Below, piece by piece: positions 277 to 6,763 of a stretch of DNA of 8,583 nt; position 1 is the stretch's first letter; each line of letters begins with the position of its first letter. The DNA is from a virus (Duplodnaviria > Heunggongvirae > Uroviricota > Caudoviricetes). The stretch is from the IMG/VR virus record IMGVR_UViG_2671180417_000003, positions 1-8,583 of that record; one strand, 5' to 3'. The position numbers and the translations under genes are program-made. The notes under the pieces were generated by a model. That model was given only the letters and a program-made list of their open reading frames with translations, searched no databases and had not been told where the DNA came from.

Positions 277-510
277 TTATGCAGCCGATGCTCTACGCGA
301 TACGAACACTAGGTTTTCCTTTTTCACAGGTTTATAACCCGTGAAATTACGAGTAGCTTCTTCGATTGCATTCGCTTTATCAGGGGAAGCTCTTCGAAAT
401 CCATATGCAATCTGGTCAAGATAGCCAACTGAAGTTTTCGCTAATGCGGCGAGTCGCTTCCATTCCTCACTAGAAGCCTCTTTTCGCCAGCGTAGTAGTT
501 CATTACTCAT
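277..510 (-). CDS. Cro-like small HTH DNA-binding regulator (77 aa)
   Basis: ORF track 277..510; SD GGAGG (plus 516-520 as CCTCC) 5 nt before ATG; HTH-like segment WKRLAALAKTSVGYLDQIAYGFRRASPDKANAIEEAT; divergent from the CI-type repressor across an operator-bearing intergenic region, the canonical cro position. Confidence 0.6.
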   Translation of the reverse strand: MSNELLRWRKEASSEEWKRLAALAKTSVGYLDQIAYGFRRASPDKANAIEEATRNFTGYKPVKKENLVFVSRRASAA

Positions 511-537
511 TAGTGCCTCCGTTTATCACACAGAACA

Positions 538-566
538 ACTTTACCATTTTGATAAATAATCCGCAA
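538..566 (-). promoter_or_regulatory. PR-like promoter for the cro-like gene: -35 TTGCGG (566..561), 17-bp spacer, -10 TAAAGT (543..538)
   Basis: Read on minus strand: TTGCGG-attatttatcaaaatgg-TAAAGT. Same -10 hexamer, same 17-bp spacing and same ATTTATCA motif inside the spacer as the PL-like promoter at 3082-3110. Confidence 0.45.
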
Positions 567-605
567 TGTAAATTTATCATATTGCGTATTTATCCATTTG
601 CTAAA
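540..605. promoter_or_regulatory. OR-like operator cluster: 17-bp dyads TTTACCattttGATAAA (540-556) and TTTATCcatttGCTAAA (589-605) plus half-site TTTATC (573-578); putative leaderless PRM (-10 GAAAAT 612-617)
   Basis: Three copies of the TTTATC/GATAAA half-site between divergent cro-like and cI-like genes; dyads have 6-bp arms and 5-bp AT-rich centre (17 bp, typical lambdoid operator size); the same dyad occurs perfectly at 3092-3108. Confidence 0.5.
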
Positions 606-623
606 TAGAGGGAAAATTGTGAG

Positions 624-1328
624 ATGGAAAACAAAGATATTCGCAAATCGAATCTGGCGTTTTTGCTAGATGAGCATAAAAAAATCGCGGGTAACACTAA
701 TGCAAGCTTTGCCGATAAGCTTGGGGTTAGCCCTTCTCAACTCACGCAAGTCTCCGGTGAAAAAAGCACTCGAAACATAGGGGATAAACTAGCAAGAAAA
801 TTTGAAGCCGCGCTTGGGTTACCTAATGGGTGGCTTGATTTGGTACATGATGTAACACCAATTGCATCATGCTCAGATTCTTTAACTTTTGTCGGTCAGG
901 TAAGAAAAGGGTTAGTGCGCGTGGTTGGTGAGGCAATTCTTGGTGTTGATGGTGCCATCGAGATGACCGAAGAGCGCGATGGGTGGCTCAAAATTTATAG
1001 CGATGATCCAGATGCCTTTGGTCTTCGTGTGAAAGGAGACAGCATGTGGCCCAGAATAAAATCAGGAGAATATGTACTCATTGAGCCTAACACCAAAGTA
1101 TTCCCGGGTGATGAGGTGTTTGTCAGAACCGTTGAAGGACACAACATGATTAAGGTTCTTGGCTATGACAGAGATGGAGAATACCAATTTACAAGCATTA
1201 ACCAGGATCACAGGCCTATAACGTTGCCTTATCATCAAGTAGCAAAGGTGGAGTATGTAGCTGGTATTCTGAAGCAATCTCGCCATCTGGATGACATCGA
1301 GGCAAGGGAGTGGCTGAAAAGTTCGTGA
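624..1328 (+). CDS. cI: CI-type prophage repressor: N-terminal HTH plus C-terminal S24 (LexA-like) peptidase domain, 234 aa
   Basis: ORF track 624..1328; HTH-like SFADKLGVSPSQLTQV; S24 catalytic dyad signature GDSMWP (Ser140) with Lys177 37 residues downstream (LexA-like spacing); divergent from cro-like gene. No Ala-Gly pair in the linker; position-equivalent is Leu106-Gly107. Confidence 0.9.
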   Translation: MENKDIRKSNLAFLLDEHKKIAGNTNASFADKLGVSPSQLTQVSGEKSTRNIGDKLARKFEAALGLPNGWLDLVHDVTPIASCSDSLTFVGQVRKGLVRVVGEAILGVDGAIEMTEERDGWLKIYSDDPDAFGLRVKGDSMWPRIKSGEYVLIEPNTKVFPGDEVFVRTVEGHNMIKVLGYDRDGEYQFTSINQDHRPITLPYHQVAKVEYVAGILKQSRHLDDIEAREWLKSS

Positions 1329-1388
1329 CTTCATCGTCACATAGCTGGTAACCAGTGGCCAGAAGAAACGTTTGGGTGAGGAGGATAG

Positions 1389-1730
1389 ATGGCGTTCACT
1401 GACCTTGAATATCAAGCGGTCAAAAAAGAAGTTCACCAATTCATTGAAAGCATAAGGCCGCCTGAACATATCCGCAATGAACTGGATATTGTTTATAGCA
1501 TCAATGACCAAACGATAGATATCGGCGAACAGCGCCCCGTGTGGCAGGGCAACCCAGGTGAAACAAACATCCTGCCATCAGCAAGAATCAAGTACATACG
1601 TTCTCTGGATAGATGGAAAATCTATTGGATGCGGAAGGATATGAAATGGCATCAGTACAGTACTGAACTTTCGCTGACTGATGCGCTTGAGCTTGTGCGT
1701 GCTGACCCGGATTGCTGCTTCTTCGGATGA
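1389..1730 (+). CDS. Hypothetical protein (113 aa), first gene after the repressor; function unrecognised
   Basis: ORF track 1389..1730; strong SD GAGGAGG (1378-1384) 4 nt before ATG; same strand as cI, 60 bp downstream; GC content similar to phage backbone; ends CCFFG. Confidence 0.7.
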   Translation: MAFTDLEYQAVKKEVHQFIESIRPPEHIRNELDIVYSINDQTIDIGEQRPVWQGNPGETNILPSARIKYIRSLDRWKIYWMRKDMKWHQYSTELSLTDALELVRADPDCCFFG

Positions 1731-1800
1731 GTGAAGAGACGTTTGGATGATGGATGATCGCAGAGATGCTCGTAGAGCATACAGCGATGCAGGAGAATTT

Positions 1801-2235
1801 ATGGCACTTAATTTAGAAAGAATATCTTTTATAACCCCATTTGATAGCAGCGAAGAACCCAACCAACCGACGCTTAATTTTACATGCAATGAATTTCCTG
1901 CGCGGCTATCAATTGATTTCAGGGTTGGTATGATCGGGTTGAAACCAAATTCAAGATATAATTTGGGTATTATGGTAATCCCCGCGCACCTAATTATAAA
2001 AAAAGGTGAGGAAATTCAATTCCCTGACGGCTCTTCGGAATCAGTTTCACTTTTCATCGATACGAAAGATAGCCATTTTGAAACAGGGGTTGGCGGACAG
2101 GTAATAGTAACATTGAAAGAAATTAGGGTCCCAGCTAAAGGGCTGTATAGTGTTATAGGGATATTGCAAGATAATGAAGACCCTAAAAATGAACTTCATA
2201 AAAATGAATCATTTTTCACCGTAGAGCTATTATGA
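1801..2235 (+). CDS. Hypothetical soluble protein (144 aa from ATG 1801; alternative start 1747 gives 162 aa); AT-rich cargo gene
   Basis: ORF track 1747..2235; preferred start ATG 1801 has SD AGGAG (1791-1795) with 5-nt spacer; stop TGA overlaps next start (ATGA at 2232-2235); AT-rich composition; no recognisable catalytic motif. Confidence 0.7.
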   Translation: MALNLERISFITPFDSSEEPNQPTLNFTCNEFPARLSIDFRVGMIGLKPNSRYNLGIMVIPAHLIIKKGEEIQFPDGSSESVSLFIDTKDSHFETGVGGQVIVTLKEIRVPAKGLYSVIGILQDNEDPKNELHKNESFFTVELL

Positions 2236-2852
2236 GTGACGACAGTAATTTAAATAATCATGGAAAGCAAGACACCAACATATCTGAAAGCCGGAGGTTG
2301 AAGGTTGTTGGCGGTTCCGATTTTGAGGCTGAATTTGATAATTCTCCCACCAAGGTGCAAAATAATTACATAAAACCGCCACAAACGGAGGAAGAAGTGG
2401 GAACGATCAGCAGAGAGGAACTTGATGCTCGCTTAGCTGCTAATAAAGCAGAGATGGAGTCTATTGCTTCTTCCATTAGGGCTGACATGGCTCTATCTCG
2501 TGAAAGCGTTAATGTCCAATTTGCATCACTTAATGCAGCCATAAGCTCTCTATCGTCCAAGATCGATGGAAAGATGGATAGCGCTGCTGGCGATATAAAA
2601 GCAATTAATGGGAGATTCGAAGGAATTCAAGGACAAATAACAGGGGTTAATACCGCAATTAGTGGTGTTCAGTCGGGTATTTCTATACGATTAGCCATTT
2701 TTAGTGTCATTATCGCTGTAATAGTTGCGATTCCCGGGCTGGTATCAGCTTTAAAGTCAGACCACGTACCTTTGCAACAGCCTTCCACTTTGCAAGCGCC
2801 GCCACAAAATACCCAGCCAACAGACAACAAAAAAATCACTCCCCAGCATTAA
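2232..2852 (+). CDS. Hypothetical single-pass membrane protein (206 aa) with long Ser/Ala/Ile/Gly-rich helical N-terminal region, one TM helix, Pro/Gln-rich C-tail
   Basis: ORF track 2232..2852; ATGA overlap with upstream gene; hydrophobic stretch IRLAIFSVIIAVIVAIPGLVSAL (about residues 152-174); C-tail KSDHVPLQQPSTLQAPPQNTQPTDNKKITPQH; AT-rich; followed directly by an intrinsic terminator. Confidence 0.75.
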   Translation: MSDDSNLNNHGKQDTNISESRRLKVVGGSDFEAEFDNSPTKVQNNYIKPPQTEEEVGTISREELDARLAANKAEMESIASSIRADMALSRESVNVQFASLNAAISSLSSKIDGKMDSAAGDIKAINGRFEGIQGQITGVNTAISGVQSGISIRLAIFSVIIAVIVAIPGLVSALKSDHVPLQQPSTLQAPPQNTQPTDNKKITPQH

Positions 2853-2858
2853 CGCATT

Positions 2859-2887
2859 AACCCGGCCTCAGCGCCGGGTTTTCTTTG
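2859..2887 (+). terminator. Rho-independent terminator closing the cI-downstream operon
   Basis: AACCCGGC-ctca gc-GCCGGGTT stem (GC-rich, 6-8 bp; 2859-2880) followed by TTTTCTTTG, 7 nt after the stop codon of the membrane-protein gene. Confidence 0.7.
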
Positions 2888-2993
2888 CCTCACGATCCCC
2901 ACACCTAAAAACACATAACCAATTGTATTTGTTGAAAAATAAATAGATACAACTTGCTAAACAACGCAATCCAGATCTCCCTCAAATCTCTTT

Positions 2994-3110
2994 ATTTATC
3001 CTGTCGAATTCCTACAACAAAATAAAACACCATAAGAATCAATACGATATTTGAAAACCAAGAGAATTTATCATTTTGCTATTGCCATTAATTTATCATT
3101 CCGATAAAGT
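2994..3110 (+). promoter_or_regulatory. PL/OL-like region: -35 TTGCCA (3082-3087), 17-bp spacer, -10 TAAAGT (3105-3110); perfect 17-bp operator dyad TTTATCattccGATAAA (3092-3108) plus upstream half-sites at 3067-3072 and 2995-3000
   Basis: Same half-site family (TTTATC/GATAAA) and same promoter hexamers/spacing as the OR/PR-like region at 538-605; shared 10-11-mers AATTTATCAT(T) at 3065-3075, 3090-3100 and 571-580, and TATTTATCC at 2993-3001 and 587-595; positioned about 250 nt upstream of the N-like gene. Confidence 0.5.
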
Positions 3111-3158
3111 TCACCCATCAGCAGGACGCACTACTCACCAGGGCGGTGAATATACAAC

Positions 3159-3193
3159 GATTCGAATATGAATCTACGGCGCTGACAAAGCGC
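3159..3193 (+). promoter_or_regulatory. nutL-like element in the N leader: hairpin GATTC-GAATAT-GAATC followed by TACGGCGCTGACAAAGCGC
   Basis: 18-mer 3175-3192 is 17/18 identical to the minus-strand element at 225-242 in the cro/cII intergenic region; stems GCGC/GCGC here versus TCGC/GCGA there (compensatory change) around identical loop TGACAAA; both are preceded by a small hairpin. Confidence 0.4.
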
Positions 3194-3358
3194 AATAACC
3201 AAAGTGAACTTTGGGGTGTGGTGAAGGGTTCATGGACGGGAATATGTCGCACGTAAAGCGGCGAGGCCTGCGGGACTATTGCCGAATTGAAGTAGGCCGA
3301 AACAGGTCGAAATGGGTCTCCCACCTACCACACCACCAAAGTTCATCAGGAGGTCTAT

Positions 3359-3742
3359 ATGACACGCAGAACTCAGTTCAAAGGCAATTCACGTTCTCGT
3401 CGTCGTGAGCGTTTAAAGGTAAAGGCATTAGCTAACGGCGTACTGGCCCGCGAAGAAGCAATAAGTTCAGAAGTATTACACCGCCCTACTCTAAGCAGAG
3501 CGCAGATTCAGGCTAAAGGTACTCACGAAACGCCTGAGCGCATAGAAGACGCTAAGCCAATTAAGTTCATGGCACAGGACGTGATCTGGCAACAGAAAGA
3601 ATACAGACGCAATCTGGAGCGAGCGGCCATTGTGTACGCGAATGAGTTTGGACATAAGCAACCAGAAACTGGTGTATGTCTTCCAAACGTAGCTCTTTAC
3701 GCGGCAGGCTACCGGAAATCAAAACAACTGACAGCAAGATGA
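3359..3742 (+). CDS. N: N-type transcription antiterminator (127 aa), Stx-phage/933W-like by recollection, with N-terminal arginine-rich motif
   Basis: ORF track 3359..3742; SD AGGAGG (3348-3353) 5 nt before ATG; N-terminus MTRRTQFKGNSRSRRRERLKVKALANG is a classic arginine-rich RNA-binding motif; first gene after the PL-like promoter and long structured leader. Confidence 0.75.
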   Translation: MTRRTQFKGNSRSRRRERLKVKALANGVLAREEAISSEVLHRPTLSRAQIQAKGTHETPERIEDAKPIKFMAQDVIWQQKEYRRNLERAAIVYANEFGHKQPETGVCLPNVALYAAGYRKSKQLTAR

Positions 3743-3803
3743 CTTGTGTTGGTCGCCAGAAAATGAAATTAGGCAGCAAACCACTTATTTGAGAGGAATT
3801 AAT

Positions 3804-4427
3804 ATGTCATCAATCCGCTTAACTACGAGAATGAAAGAGGAAATCGCTCGTAACGCTTTAATTAAGTCCGGGGTGTTCACTGAACTTGAAGAAGTAACAA
3901 AGTTAAAGAACCAGCTTGCACTTGACGCCAGAGTTATTGCGTTTGGCGGTAAAAAGAAAACTGAGGAAGTGGATCAGCTATCATCCAAGTTGGTAGCTAT
4001 AAGTGAAGAACTTGGAAAGATGGGATGTTCATTTTACTCATACGATGTTAGTTCTACTTCAATTTATCTGACTGTATCTGGCAGAAGGGTTGGATGGCAT
4101 TCATATGGGAAAGACGGCAACGGCAAAGATATATTGCTCCCTACTCCGATCAAAGATAAATGCATGTTTGACGCAGAACACGAAATAACAAAAAGGTTTG
4201 ATGAAATCTGCGCATTGCAACAAAAACTTGAAGCCAAGAAAAAGGATATCGAATCAAATGTATGGGCTGCTTTGAACTCAGTCACAACAGTTAAGCGACT
4301 TATTGAAGTTTGGCCTGAAAGCAAAGAATTGCTACCAAAAGAAGCAGATAAAGCAAGTACAGCACTTCCTGCTTTACGGGTAGAAGATTTGAATAAGATG
4401 ATTGGACTTCCTTCCGAGGCCGCATAG
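3804..4427 (+). CDS. Hypothetical protein (208 aa from ATG 3804), AT-rich accessory gene in the N-to-cIII slot
   Basis: ORF track 3744..4427 uses a TTG start; ATG 3804 preferred because of SD GAGAGGA (3791-3797) with 6-nt spacer; hydrophilic, Lys/Glu-rich with predicted coiled-coil-like segments; stop lies inside a terminator hairpin. Confidence 0.7.
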   Translation: MSSIRLTTRMKEEIARNALIKSGVFTELEEVTKLKNQLALDARVIAFGGKKKTEEVDQLSSKLVAISEELGKMGCSFYSYDVSSTSIYLTVSGRRVGWHSYGKDGNGKDILLPTPIKDKCMFDAEHEITKRFDEICALQQKLEAKKKDIESNVWAALNSVTTVKRLIEVWPESKELLPKEADKASTALPALRVEDLNKMIGLPSEAA

Positions 4428-4442
4428 TCGGCCTTTATTTTT
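4417..4442 (+). terminator. Rho-independent terminator (tL1-like) immediately after the 3804-4427 gene
   Basis: AGGCCG-catagt-CGGCCT 6-bp stem (4417-4434) followed by TTATTTTT (4435-4442); stop codon TAG sits in the loop. Confidence 0.65.
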
Positions 4443-4471
4443 GGCATAAACAACAGAATAAATACTGCACT

Positions 4472-4586: not shown

Positions 4587-4648
4587 TATGCATACCAATA
4601 ACGCTTCACTCGAGGCGTTTTTCGTTATGTATAAATAAGGAGCACACC

Positions 4649-4813
4649 ATGCAATATGCCATTGCAGGGTGGCCTGTTGCTGGCTGCCCTTCCGAATCTT
4701 TACTTGAACGAATCACCCGTAAATTACGTGACGGATGGAAACGCCTTATCGACATACTTAATCAGCCAGGAGTCCCAAAGAATGGATCAAACACTTATGG
4801 CTATCCAGACTAA
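4649..4813 (+). CDS. cIII: CIII (54 aa), FtsH inhibitor that stabilises CII
   Basis: Translation [54 protein letters not shown] matches lambda CIII as I recall it; SD TAAGGAG (4636-4642) 6 nt before ATG 4649; the ORF-track entry 4547..4813 is an artefactual N-terminal extension through the terminator. Confidence 0.85.
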   Translation: MQYAIAGWPVAGCPSESLLERITRKLRDGWKRLIDILNQPGVPKNGSNTYGYPD

Positions 4814-4925: not shown

Positions 4926-4998
4926 CCCCTTTCCTGTTTTCCTAATCAGCCCGGCATTTCGCGGGCGATATTTTCACAGCTATTTCAGGAGTTCGGCC

Positions 4999-5295
4999 AT
5001 GAACGCTTATTACATTCAGGATCGTCTTGAGGCTCAGAGCTGGGCGCGTCACTACCAGCAGATAGCCCGTGAAGAGAAAGAGGCAGAACTGGCAGACGAC
5101 ATGGAAAAAGGCCTGCCCCAGCACCTGTTTGAATCGCTATGCATCGGTCATTTGCAACGCCACGGGGCCAGCAAAAAAGCCATTACCCGTGCGTTTGATG
5201 ACGATGTTGAGTTTCAGGAGCGCATGGCAGAACACATCCGGTACATGGTTGAAACCATTGCTCACCATCAGGTTGATATTGATTCAGAGGTATAA
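4999..5295 (+). CDS. gam: Gam, short form (98 aa), RecBCD inhibitor
   Basis: ORF track 4999..5295; near-identical to lambda Gam C-terminal 98 residues from memory; SD AGGAG (4987-4991). The upstream long-form start (ATG 4880) is in a different frame here, see findings. Confidence 0.9.
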
Positions 5296-5300
5296 AACGG

Positions 5301-6086
5301 ATGAGTACAGCACTCGCAACGCTGGCAGGGAAGCTGGCTGAACGTGTCGGCATGGATTCTGTCGACCCACAGGAACTGATCACCACTCTTCGCCAGACGG
5401 CATTTAAAGGCGATGCCAGCGATGCGCAGTTCATCGCATTGTTGATCGTCGCCAACCAGTACGGCCTTAATCCGTGGATGAAAGAAATTTACGCCTTCCC
5501 TGATAAGCAGAACGGCATCGTTCCGGTGGTGGGCGTTGATGGCTGGTCCCGCATCATCAATGAAAACCAGCATTTTGATGGCATGGACTTTGAGCAGGAC
5601 AATGAATCCTGTACATGCCGGATTTACCGCAAGGACCGTAATCATCCGATCTGCGTTACCGAATGGATGGATGAATGCCGCCGCGAACCATTCAAAACCC
5701 GCGAAGGCAGAGAAATCACGGGGCCGTGGCAGTCGCATCCTAAACGGATGTTACGGCATAAAGCTATGATTCAGTGTGCCCGTCTGGCCTTCGGATTTGC
5801 TGGTATCTATGACAAGGATGAAGCCGAGCGCATTGTCGAAAATACTGCATACACTGCAGAACGCCAGCCGGAACGCGACATCACTCCGGTTAACGATGAA
5901 ACCATGCAGGAGATTAACACTCTGCTAATCGCCCTGGATAAAACATGGGATGACGACTTATTGCCGCTCTGTTCCCAGATATTTCGCCGCGACATTCGCG
6001 CATCGTCAGAACTGACACAGGCCGAAGCAGTGAAAGCTCTTGGATTCCTGAAACAGAAAGCCACTGAGCAGAAGGTGGCAGCATGA
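5301..6086 (+). CDS. bet: Bet (Red-beta) single-strand annealing recombinase, 261 aa
   Basis: ORF track 5301..6086; sequence [88 protein letters not shown]... recognised as lambda Bet; followed by exo with ATGA overlap. Confidence 0.95.
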
Positions 6087-6763
6087 CACCGGACATTATC
6101 CTGCAGCGTACCGGGATCGACGTGAGAGCTGTCGAACAGGGGGATGATGCATGGCACAAATTACGGCTCGGCGTCATCACCGCTTCAGAAGTTCACAACG
6201 TGATAGCAAAGCCCCGCTCAGGAAAGAAGTGGCCTGACATGAAAATGTCCTACTTCCACACCCTGCTGGCTGAGGTTTGCACCGGTGTGGCTCCGGAAGT
6301 TAATGCTAAGGCGCTGGCCTGGGGAAAACAGTACGAGAACGACGCCAGAACCCTGTTTGAATTCACTTCCGGCGTGAATGTTACTGAATCCCCGATCATC
6401 TATCGCGACGAAAGTATGCGCACCGCCTGCTCTCCCGATGGTTTATGCAGTGACGGCAACGGCCTTGAGCTGAAATGCCCGTTTACCTCCCGGGATTTCA
6501 TGAAATTCCGGCTCGGTGGTTTCGAGGCCATAAAGTCGGCTTACATGGCCCAGGTGCAGTACAGCATGTGGGTGACGCGAAAAGATGCCTGGTACTTTGC
6601 CAACTATGACCCACGAATGAAGCGTGAAGGCCTGCATTATGTCGTGGTTGAGCGGGATGAAAATTACATGGCGAGTTTTGACGAGATGGTGCCGGAGTTC
6701 ATCGAAAAAATGGACGAGGCACTGGCTGAAATTGGTTTTGTATTTGGGGAGCAATGGCGATGA
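6083..6763 (+). CDS. exo: Exo (lambda exonuclease, Red-alpha), 226 aa
   Basis: ORF track 6083..6763; [69 protein letters not shown]... recognised as lambda Exo; ATGA start overlap with bet stop. Confidence 0.95.

Follow-up and report, generated by a model that had tools for sequence, protein, structure and literature searches.

The window, by which we mean the whole stretch of 8,583 nucleotides analysed here, represents the early-left region of a lambdoid prophage of the 933W/Stx type, with the gene order cro, cI, A, B, C, tM terminator, OL/PL, N and gam-bet-exo. From cI to N this order is collinear with that of lambda, 933W and HK542. The features on which the analysis draws are listed below.

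277..510, minus strand: gene in the cro position, 77 aa, right half of the immunity module (ORF list)
511..623: OR, the PRM-PR intergenic region, with TTTATCA-type operator half-sites (31.9% GC)
624..1328, plus strand: cI repressor of the 933W family, with HTH and S24 peptidase domain (Pfam Peptidase_S24, 3.8e-16)
1353..1379, plus strand: relic 1, a non-coding vestige of the 3′ end of a lambda-type cI (alignment to the lambda and HK542 cI genes)
1389..1730, plus strand: gene A, a DUF3024 protein, L0084 of 933W (Pfam, PADLOC, PHROGs)
1732..1769: left joint zone, 38 bp (homology breakpoints of 933W, 06_3288, HK542 and E2)
1733..1750, plus strand: relic 2, a second copy of the cI 3′-end motif (motif match, alignment)
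1801..2235, plus strand: gene B, a 144-aa soluble protein (phrog_5893)
2232..2852, plus strand: gene C, a 206-aa single-pass membrane protein (phrog_5820)
2858..2979: right joint zone, a ~120-bp block of the terminator plus ~100 nt (alignment of 7 phages)
2859..2890, plus strand: intrinsic terminator, equivalent to tM / t_imm (stem-loop, 933W annotation)
2980..3150, plus strand: OL/PL, left half of the immunity module (operator motifs, promoter-like site)
3359..3742, plus strand: N antiterminator (Pfam N_peptide, 2.2e-15; homologue of 933W N)

The cI product is annotated as a LexA family regulator (WP_000428098), and its N-terminal part is unlike that of the 933W repressor, homology to which begins only at 875. 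In identical prophages the cro-position gene is annotated as a hypothetical protein of 77 aa; together with cI and OR it sets the window apart from 933W and SCU-104. The OR region contains a promoter-like site on the minus strand (604-576) and shares the motifs AATTTATCAT and TGATAAAT with OL, where operator motifs lie at ~3065-3108 and a PL promoter is predicted (TTGCCA-17-TAAAGT, with the -35 element at 3082-3087 and the -10 element at 3105-3110). Strain War combines the cI of the window with different cargo, and its OL/PL region (~2980-3150) is 99% identical to that of the window; SCU-104, in which A-B-C are shared but cI is of another kind, reaches only 67-75% identity there. Judged by these alignments, OL/PL is shown to group with the cI/cro/OR immunity module and not with the cargo, and its AT-richness would fit a non-coding promoter/operator region. 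An earlier reading of this DNA from its sequence only had counted PL/OL as part of the B-C cassette, a grouping that we do not retain, since OL/PL tracks immunity type and the segment at 2858-2979 is common to all cargo types.

Gene A matches the Pfam family DUF3024 (PF11225; 2.4e-31, 108.7 bits against a cutoff of 24.9, residues 4-113), the PADLOC model PDC-S43 (PDLC05018; 7.2e-42, residues 1-113) and phrog_3467. PDC entries in PADLOC are computational candidates, and our literature search returned no paper on DUF3024 and one passing mention of PDC-S43. Genes B and C overlap at the start/stop sequence ATGA, and B may be translationally coupled to C; the start of gene B is most likely 1801 rather than the 1747 chosen by PGAP. 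The B protein is modelled as a putative Ig/Fn3-like beta-sandwich, which is a generic fold. The C protein has a variable N-terminus, a long helix (61-139), a TM helix (~150-174, with a hydropathy peak of 2.71 at residues 156-174) and a Pro/Gln-rich tail in which the alignment reveals a conserved PIIIQVP-like motif; its AlphaFold model is of low confidence (pTM 0.24). Neither protein matched a family in Pfam, PADLOC or NCBIfam, and their PHROGs are only of unknown function. Sub-threshold coiled-coil-like matches of gene C in Pfam, PDB and NCBIfam (Baculo_PEP_C, SmhB, MakE, apolipoprotein) were treated as noise. Homology of B-C to RexA or RexB was not found, tblastn labelling having left the B-C cluster unmarked, and a literature search yielded nothing on the HK542/HK244 immunity cargo or the protein accessions. 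Rfam returned no RNA family within 1300-3400.

In Citrobacter and Cedecea, B-C lies immediately downstream of repressors of differing types, on the same strand. In Yersinia, Salmonella, Pectobacterium and Enterobacter, genes of the C family likewise lie behind a repressor and a small partner gene of unrelated sequence, and the family occurs behind repressors in at least seven genera. The partners of C in Yersinia, Pectobacterium and Enterobacter are unrelated in sequence, and the resemblance of the Salmonella partner is at best marginal. A common origin of these small partners was considered and rejected, homologues of B being found only in Citrobacter and Cedecea.

The sequence-only reading had described a sharp drop in GC content downstream of gene A. 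Measured GC is 0.445 in cI, 0.459 in A, 0.471 in the A-B spacer, 0.375 in B (1801-2235), 0.432 in C (2232-2852), 0.358 in 2853-3120, 0.482 in N and 0.50-0.53 in gam, bet and exo, with 0.402 for the span 1731-3120 and 0.457 for the whole window. The by-eye estimates of the mid-40s for cI and A and of about 50% for the Red genes agree with these values, while that of the high-30s for 1801-2852 and the following non-coding region holds for gene B and the non-coding stretch but not for gene C, at 43%. The lowest-GC 435-bp stretch in the entire window starts at 1796 (gene B), and the best GC split within 624-2852 falls after 1795, in keeping with the proposed discontinuity near 1740-1800 and with the homology joint at 1732-1769 described below.

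When the position of the split is scanned, its permutation p-value is 0.33 for 624-2852 and 0.07 for A and B only. Direct contrasts give p=0.019 for A against B, p=0.115 for A against B+C and p=0.041 for cI+A against B+C, and the GC of gene C is indistinguishable from that of A (Fisher p=0.42) and of cI. Recursive maximum-likelihood segmentation of the whole window with permutation tests accepts a single change point, at 4946 (0.428 before it and 0.497 after it), and a jump between adjacent windows at least as large as the A|B step is found at 5.6% of window positions. At third codon positions (GC3), the contrast is clearest for A against B (0.496 and 0.319, p=0.005), marginal for A against C (p=0.043), and absent for cI against B (p=0.12) and cI against C (p=0.56). 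The homologues of B and C in Citrobacter and Cedecea also have a GC below that of the adjoining repressor genes. The analysis of GC and codon positions that had been proposed as a check therefore finds a step that is weak overall: the dip is real and correctly placed, yet it is modest, 'sharp' overstates it, and it is suggestive only, being insufficient alone for a boundary. Because the A|B step is non-significant after scanning, we dropped composition as the main evidence.

Alignment with related phages puts a mosaic joint at 1732-1769, between A and B. Homology with 933W and 06_3288 extends over 1-1769 and then from 2858 onward, that with HK542 and E2 over 1732-2979/2988, and that with War and 2013C over 1-1379/1389 and then from 2859 onward. 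The 38 bp at 1732-1769 are common to A-bearing 933W-type phages and HK542-type B-C donors. With 933W homology ending at 1769 and HK542/E2 homology starting at 1732, the suspected composite joint between A and B is borne out. HK542 and E2 have a different, lambda-type cI and do not carry gene A, and in HK542/HK244 B-C (1770-2857) stands directly behind this lambda-type cI. The segment 1732-2979 is 98% identical to the HK542/HK244 cassette, with 99.5% identity across both coding sequences, and in the phage collection B-C was found only in these two phages (99.5%), whose deposited records are labelled 'immunity region'. We presume that these records stem from Degnan et al. 2007. B-C follows three repressor types in all: lambda-type (HK542, E2), 933W-family (the window) and a third cI (SCU-104).

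Among 5,426 E. coli genomes, gene A is present in 227, B-C in 51 and the A|B junction in 18, and the complete cI-A-B-C-PL arrangement in 13. A occurs without B-C in ~209 of its 227 genomes, which answers the question of whether related prophages carry it separately, and B-C occurs without A in ~33 of 51; these counts (227, 51 and 18) are the opposite of genes that always travel together with identical flanks. IS1 copies in two genomes interrupt the B-C cassette and are not carriers of it. Arrival of B-C by transposition was rejected as an explanation, as the pair is neither accompanied by a transposase nor flanked by repeats of its own.

The cI-end motif, GAAGAGACGTTTGG, is matched twice in the window, where chance would give 0.00 matches. 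Relic 1 (CAGTGGCCAGAAGAAACGTTTGGGTGA, encoding ...QWPEETFG*) begins 25 nt past the real cI stop and aligns with the end of the cI reading frame in lambda and HK542; in the SCU-104 prophage, to which homology of the window begins at 1352, the same sequence is the genuine repressor end (...VIASQWPEETFG), 9 nt before the ATG of A. Relic 2 (GAAGAGACGTTTGGATGA, EETFG) lies immediately 3′ of the gene A stop, is also found behind L0084 in 933W, and aligns in HK542 with bases that are the true cI 3′ end. Cargo departs from the window at 1379-1389 in War and 2013C and at 1751 in RM8352. RMDEC465 is without relic 2 and diverges precisely at the A stop codon, so that some joints fall outside the cI-end motif. 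On the other side, the terminator at 2859..2890, with an 8-bp GC-rich stem followed by TTCTTTGCCT, is invariant in 7 phages and corresponds to the tM annotation of 933W; the only plus-strand terminator-like site in 450-3400 is at 2859-2880. The alignment finds 2858-2979 conserved in the window, HK542, E2, 933W, War, 2013C and lambda, with 91% identity to lambda-type prophages (H105); the homology to HK542 stops at 2979, and that to 933W-type prophages sets in again at 2858-2860. The alignments show that these boundaries delimit a slot. On its left it is bounded by the terminal ~20-27 nt of a lambda-type cI gene or, where the repressor is of the 933W family, by a non-coding relic of that gene end; on its right it is bounded by a ~120-bp block beginning with tM.

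In the 933W-type prophages examined, A follows 933W-family repressors. The same cI (96-99% identical over the common stretch) is found without A in War and 2013C_3653, and in SCU-104 what precedes A is the true C-terminal end of a lambda-type cI, so that the idea that A belongs with the repressor survives only in a loose form. Because A is bracketed by relics and also occurs behind the SCU-104 repressor, A together with relic 2 is best described, on alignment evidence, as a separate 371-bp stackable unit between two relic copies. The same comparisons show the window to hold a stack of two units, A plus relic 2 and then B-C.

We surveyed cargo in IMG/VR contigs that contain the terminator block; because the search used an exact 34-nt seed and the counts refer to the matches listed, the sample is biased. 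On contigs with at least 3 kb upstream, the cI-end motif lies 0.6-2.1 kb upstream in 95 of the 95 matches listed. No slot among these 95 listed loci is empty, alternative cargo of 0.6-2 kb occupying the place of B-C. Cargo between the two motifs forms at least 24 clusters (95 IMG/VR loci listed), and most of these types are unannotated. Cluster GC ranges from 0.347 to 0.443 and lies below that of the upstream cI end in all 24 listed, in one by just 0.002; in named phages, cargo GC is 0.402 for rexA, 0.425 for rexB, 0.354 for stk and 0.37-0.41 for the HigB module. Slot cargo in different phages is shown by these comparisons to be unrelated, 0.6-2 kb in length and AT-rich relative to the adjacent cI end. 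Among the IMG/VR matches listed, loci with two relics (copies 371 nt apart) enclose gene A in 20 of 20 cases, in which it precedes three different cargos, and the 371-bp unit behaves as an extra insertion, present in 20 loci and absent in 75.

These observations make it probable, with good confidence, that between cI and OL/PL lies a slot for exchangeable accessory genes, whose cargo is what the GC dip marks. Cargo would be swapped when lambdoid phages that co-infect a cell or reside in it undergo homologous recombination within the conserved edges, a mechanism that we infer from the points at which homology starts and stops. Since relic 2 lies behind A, the A unit could be placed before any cargo. 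An account that takes A as repressor backbone and B, C and PL/OL as one later AT-rich moron insertion would accommodate the GC minimum from 1796, the 35.8% GC of 2853-3120, the position of A behind 933W-family repressors in the 933W-type prophages examined and the real A|B joint. We nevertheless regard it as highly improbable: OL/PL co-varies with cI and not with B-C; the block at 2858-2979 is common to all cargo types, lambda included; the same cI is found without A; and A lies between two foreign cI-end relics and also behind another repressor type. Moreover, B-C substitutes for other cargo and does not interrupt contiguous sequence, and no B-C-specific promoter-like site was found: a consensus scan, which is weak evidence, detected none in 1731-1800, and the only site inside the cassette (2335-2363) fits chance (5 found against 6.4 expected). 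The comparisons do not bear out the earlier proposal of B-C as a later moron insertion: the pair is an allelic replacement, standing between conserved flanks where related phages have other cargo, and the data give no order of events.

It is also very unlikely that the dip reflects just the usual variation of GC between genes, or is a product of the codon or amino-acid make-up of gene B, with no ancestry signal. Sequence comparison places the mosaic joint ~30-60 bp from the GC split, no other 435-bp stretch of the window is as AT-rich as gene B, whose GC3 is 0.32 against 0.50 for A, all 24 listed cargo types fall below the adjoining cI end in GC (one marginally), and the Citrobacter and Cedecea homologues of B and C are likewise below their neighbouring repressors. 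Against this stand the results that composition gives when taken by itself, namely a segmentation that returns only 4946, a local split with p=0.33, a gene C no different from cI and A, and equal jumps at 5.6% of positions.

As for the function of the slot cargo in the window, the PRM transcript is predicted to span cI-A-B-C and to end at tM, and because the four genes lie on this one predicted transcript, A, B and C would be made in the lysogen. By analogy with the slot occupants RexAB, 933W Stk and BstA, B-C is most likely a lysogen-expressed phage-exclusion or abortive-infection module. It is conceivable, if rather doubtful, that B-C is instead a lysogen-expressed accessory module that is not anti-phage and acts in repressor cleavage or induction, the envelope, host fitness or the lytic cycle. 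B and C bear no likeness to catalogued defence proteins in PADLOC, accessory genes of the PRM transcript can act otherwise, as does 434 Hex (PMC3564112), and the periplasmic tail motif and coiled-coil of C would suit an envelope or structural role; yet the characterised slot occupants RexAB, Stk and BstA are exclusion or abortive-infection genes (PMC8585504, PMC3564112), the neighbouring gene A matches a defence-candidate model, and a constant membrane part with changing small partners may recall sensor-effector pairs. Extending the exclusion reading, we tentatively suggest that B-C, or the C family at large with its swappable small upstream partner, could be a repressor-linked two-component exclusion system of Enterobacterales prophages, RexAB-like but unrelated, in which the soluble partner would sense infection and the single-pass coiled-coil membrane protein would be the effector, and that the duplicated cI-end relic could be a portable homology linker for stacking units, here A and then B-C, on the PRM transcript.

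As an example of how lambdoid phages evolve by modules, the window is a textbook case. Two sequence anchors, the cI-end motif and the tM block, allow slot cargo to be collected from any lambdoid prophage, and the cargo types, at least 24 in number, amount to a compact candidate list of prophage-encoded defence genes. The annotation is also fixed, with the B start most probably at 1801 and OL/PL placed with the immunity module. B-C and the wider C family are candidate exclusion genes, and if B-C does exclude phage, the known repertoire of defence systems would grow modestly.

Recombination between cI and PL at a hotspot is already known. Passages in PMC8585504 and PMC7067206, citing Degnan et al. 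(2007, Mol Microbiol 64:232), describe the cI-N interval as a hotspot of mosaic diversity and a moron site. The window has the same interval with the same conserved edges as lambda, and differs in that its cassette stands behind a 933W-family repressor and has the extra unit A. A close counterpart is the 933W module L0084-L0083-stk-L0081: gene A is the orthologue of L0084 (~98% DNA identity), and both relics and the terminator block have the identical arrangement; the cargo after relic 2 is L0083-stk-L0081 in 933W (1.7 kb, 35% GC) and B-C in the window. According to a passage in PMC3564112, citing Friedman et al. 2011, 933W Stk is co-transcribed with cI and aborts HK97 infection.

Morons are taken here in the sense of Juhala and Hendrix (HK97/HK022 comparison, J Mol Biol 2000; cited in PMC10884400). 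Like morons, B-C consists of accessory genes not required for lytic growth, has a 3′ terminator and is probably expressed from the prophage. In composition, B is at 0.375 against 0.459 for A (p=0.019) and C, at 0.432, is no different, a contrast that is not significant after scanning although the trend is consistent across the 24 listed cargo types. In contrast to morons, B-C has no detected promoter of its own, its terminator is the shared tM, and it is an alternative allele of an always-filled slot and not an extra insertion. BstA of the Salmonella prophage BTP1 (PMC8585504) resembles B-C in lying downstream of the repressor, an association conserved across genera, and is presumably co-transcribed with the prophage repressor; it is a single unrelated protein that acts at phage replication sites, whereas B-C comprises two genes, one of them for a membrane protein.

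With lambda RexA/RexB, B-C shares slot, strand and flanks, a two-gene layout, AT-richness relative to cI and one membrane partner, although no sequence similarity was detected in Pfam, PADLOC or NCBIfam. RexA has 279 aa against the 144-aa predicted beta-sandwich of B, and RexB has several TM segments against the one predicted TM helix of C. RexB is described as an ion channel in the papers cited above. Considering the models of the two proteins together, the architecture of a soluble B and a single-TM C would be compatible with a RexAB-type sensor-effector pair.

The window, whose orientation is opposite to that of the lambda map, is the early-left arm of a 933W/Stx-type lambdoid prophage, as seen from its open reading frames, domain hits and whole-window similarity; the chromosome of E. 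coli strain S1-IND-01-A is 100% identical to it across 600-3400.

Features of the window, with GC fraction where computed
277-510, minus strand: cro-position gene
511-623: OR
624-1328: cI, GC 0.445
1389-1730: gene A, GC 0.459
1801-2235: gene B, GC 0.375
2232-2852: gene C, GC 0.432
2853-3120: span after gene C, GC 0.358
2859-2880, plus strand: terminator, the sole plus-strand terminator-like site between 450 and 3400
about 3060-3110: OL/PL
3359-3742: N, GC 0.482
3804-4427: Nmad5 gene, after N
between the Nmad5 gene and gam: cIII/kil
4999-6763: gam, bet and exo, GC 0.50-0.53

Comparison with related loci demonstrates an accessory slot between the 3′ end of cI and the terminator upstream of OL/PL, with conserved edges, AT-rich cargo genes and independent assortment of cI, A, the B-C cassette and OL/PL, and we consider this mosaic model very probably correct. 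Joints were mapped with blastn between the window and representative loci. The match to 933W and to the stk-bearing prophage of 06_3288 stops at 1769 and resumes at 2858, and between the equivalents of these positions both hold L0083-stk-L0081. Phage HK542 and the E2 prophage lack gene A, and their repressor is another one, of lambda type; they match the window over 1732-2979/2988 at about 98%, rising to 99.5% inside the B and C coding sequences. War and 2013C_3653 share the cI of the window (99% and 96%, respectively, over the shared stretch), diverge at 1379 and 1389, and both rejoin at 2859-2860, with other cargo in place (a HigB-HTH module in War, small ORFs in 2013C_3653). B-C is flanked by 1732-1769 and 2858-2979, two short zones that every donor shares; by these starts and stops of homology and the shared flanks, B-C (about 1770-2857) is a unit of its own.

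The repressor (624-1328) is itself hybrid relative to 933W, with a breakpoint at about 875-888 (about residue 84). Homology of 933W, RM8352 and RMDEC465 to the window cI begins only there, so 933W has a different N-terminal DNA-binding part of cI, a different OR and a different cro-position gene; the C-terminal S24 domain is common to both. A second swappable cassette lies just after N, at 3794-4466, and carries the Nmad5 (nucleotide modification associated domain 5) gene (Pfam E-value 3e-71, 40% GC); it is also found in HK542 (96.7%) and SCU-104, and an unrelated 471-bp ORF (L0079-like) replaces Nmad5 in 933W, War, 06_3288 and S1-IND-01-A. The lambda cIII thermoregulator element RF01804 was detected with Rfam at 4636-4694, at the start of the cIII gene (88.5 bits, E=4e-21).

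The left edge of the slot is the 3′ end of a lambda-type cI gene, where lambda, HK542 and SCU-104 encode the C-terminus ...QWPEETFG* with CAGTGGCCTGAAGAGACGTTTGGnTGA. These 27 nt recur in the window as non-coding sequence at 1353-1379 (relic 1), 25 nt past the true cI stop, and a second copy of 18 nt is present at 1733-1750 (relic 2), directly after the gene A stop; two copies were thus observed versus 0.00 expected. Cargo diverges at a relic or a few bases beyond it (War at 1379, RM8352 at 1751, 933W at 1769). The right edge begins exactly at the terminator hairpin and extends about 100 nt beyond, as a block nearly invariant across lambda, HK542, E2, 933W, War, 2013C_3653 and the window. Its non-coding part at 2881-2979, about 100 nt, hardly varies between lambda and 933W-type phages though both neighbours (cargo and OL) do; no Rfam family reached threshold there (the best, rliG at E=0.3, is noise), and the stretch may owe its conservation simply to use as a linker for recombination, or it may serve in regulation. 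Immediately 5′ of relic 1, CATAGCTGGTAAC (1340-1352) is similar to CATAGCTGATAAC, which in lambda follows the cI stop at a distance of about 25 nt, and may be another fragment of the lambda-type cI-rexA spacer or a chance resemblance.

Gene A encodes a DUF3024 protein matching PADLOC candidate model PDC-S43. In SCU-104, 9 nt separate its ATG from the stop codon of a repressor with a genuine lambda-type C-terminus, and homology of the window to this prophage starts at 1352, so relic 1 arrived with A, which is bracketed by two motif copies. In an IMG/VR census seeded on an exact 34-nt sequence, and consequently a biased sample, at least 95 contigs were listed, at least 75 with one motif copy and at least 20 with two. 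In all of the latter listed, the copies are exactly 371 nt apart and enclose gene A, and three different cargos follow the gene A unit; NYN-domain and DUF6978/DUF1828 cargo is also preceded by A in E. coli genomes. We found A in 227 of 5,426 complete E. coli genomes, B-C in 51, the junction between A and B in only 18 and cI-A-B-C-PL in full in 13, so that A does occur without B-C. Within the phage collection, B-C is restricted to HK542 and HK244, whose records containing it are labelled "immunity region" and presumably come from Degnan et al. 2007. An IS1 element interrupts B-C in NZ_CP063473.1 and NZ_CP031134.1, and in two more E. coli genomes (hits H174 and H175) the matches cover only 72% of it, split over two pieces, so part of the B-C copies are inactivated.

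Motifs resembling operators (TTTATCA..., about 3065-3108) are repeated in OR, and a PL-like promoter is present at 3082-3110. War, with the same cI and different cargo, is 99.1% identical across 2860-3793; SCU-104, with the same A-B-C and different cI/cro/OR, is 99-100% identical over 1352-2950, 67-75% over 2952-3151 and 99-100% from 3152. The accessory slot thus splits the immunity module in two, as in lambda, and we attribute the AT-richness of 2853-3120 to promoter/operator DNA. A sequence-only reading had viewed B-C together with PL/OL as one acquired cassette, and had suggested that A may belong with the repressor and that B-C may be a later moron insertion. Its mosaic joint between A and B stands, as 933W homology ends at 1769 and HK542/E2 homology begins at 1732. 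The remainder is wrong or unproven: OL/PL is conserved in War despite the different cargo and divergent in SCU-104 despite the same A-B-C, A lies between two motif copies and follows another repressor in SCU-104, and 933W, 06_3288, War and 2013C_3653 hold other cargo where B-C would have been inserted.

The same reading started from a sharp GC drop over 1731-3120 (GC 0.402), of which the position was recovered: the best split inside 624-2852 falls after 1795, and gene B is the lowest-GC 435-bp stretch of the whole window (start 1796). The sharpness (permutation p 0.33) and the extension over C (A vs C p=0.42) were not. There is a step from A to B in GC (p=0.019; A vs B+C p=0.115) and more clearly in GC3 (0.496 vs 0.319, p=0.005), but recursive segmentation of the whole window accepts a single boundary, at 4946, and the GC3 of cI (0.40) is not distinguishable from that of B or C. 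The boundary would not be proven from composition alone. Among the IMG/VR contigs listed, at least 24 distinct cargo clusters of 0.63-2.0 kb occupy the slot, including rexAB, L0083-stk-L0081, the HigB module and B-C. Cargo GC in the listed matches is 0.347-0.443 versus 0.435-0.473 in the adjacent 600 bp of cI, and is below cI in every cluster listed (in one by 0.002 only); the named phages show the same trend, and the GC cue is therefore a general property of the slot.

Gene B most likely starts at 1801, given a good Shine-Dalgarno, the starts of homologues and the HK542 annotation; the RefSeq/PGAP start (ATG 1747, 162 aa) lies inside relic 2 and lacks a good Shine-Dalgarno. The 144-aa B protein is acidic and soluble, with a predicted Ig/Fn3-like beta-sandwich fold (pLDDT 67), and structural neighbours of the model were uninformative. 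The start of C overlaps the B stop (ATGA); C has a variable N-terminus, a predicted long helix (61-139), one predicted TM helix (about 150-174) and a tail rich in Pro and Gln in which a PIIIQVP-like motif is conserved. Neither matched a Pfam, PADLOC or NCBIfam family above threshold, and homologues are few (12 clusters for B and 28 for C), all in Enterobacterales. In nearly all contexts examined, a prophage repressor gene directly precedes a B-C-type pair on the same strand, with varying repressor types (S24-type cI, RacR/Phage_CI_repr type, short HTH type), in Citrobacter, Cedecea, Yersinia, Salmonella, Pectobacterium and Enterobacter. The one exception is Yersinia locus L012 (3695-4699), where a 97-aa partner and a C-like gene have no adjacent repressor; this pair sits close to the border of a different prophage, with a DinI-like gene and phage tail and baseplate genes as neighbours. 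What stays the same across the pairs is C, whereas the small protein encoded upstream of it is homologous to B in E. coli, Citrobacter and Cedecea alone; partners of 97, 149, 99 and 120 aa (Yersinia L013/L014, Salmonella L020, Pectobacterium L022, Enterobacter L023) have no sequence similarity to B. The Salmonella partner has only a GLY..(V/I)...FF.V-like C-terminal pattern in common with B. Judged by sequence, a membrane component that does not change seems to be combined with partners that do.

We infer that cargo would be exchanged by homologous recombination within the slot edges, and that the A unit would be stackable because it brings its own copy of the left edge. We found no description of such stacking through a duplicated cI-end relic, or of the wider repressor-linked C family, in the literature covered, where Degnan et al. 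2007 enters only through later papers that cite it. Two of these (PMC8585504 and PMC7067206) describe the cI-N interval as a mosaic-diversity hotspot in which accessory loci are commonly found; as the cassette had also been sequenced earlier, our finding exemplifies a phenomenon already known. The remaining interest is in B-C as a candidate defence module. cI-A-B-C would be cotranscribed from PRM to the terminator at 2859-2880, and B-C could act in the lysogen as an exclusion or abortive-infection module, a function that we propose only tentatively, on the model of RexAB, 933W Stk and BstA, whose genes are found where B-C lies here (PMC8585504, PMC3564112).
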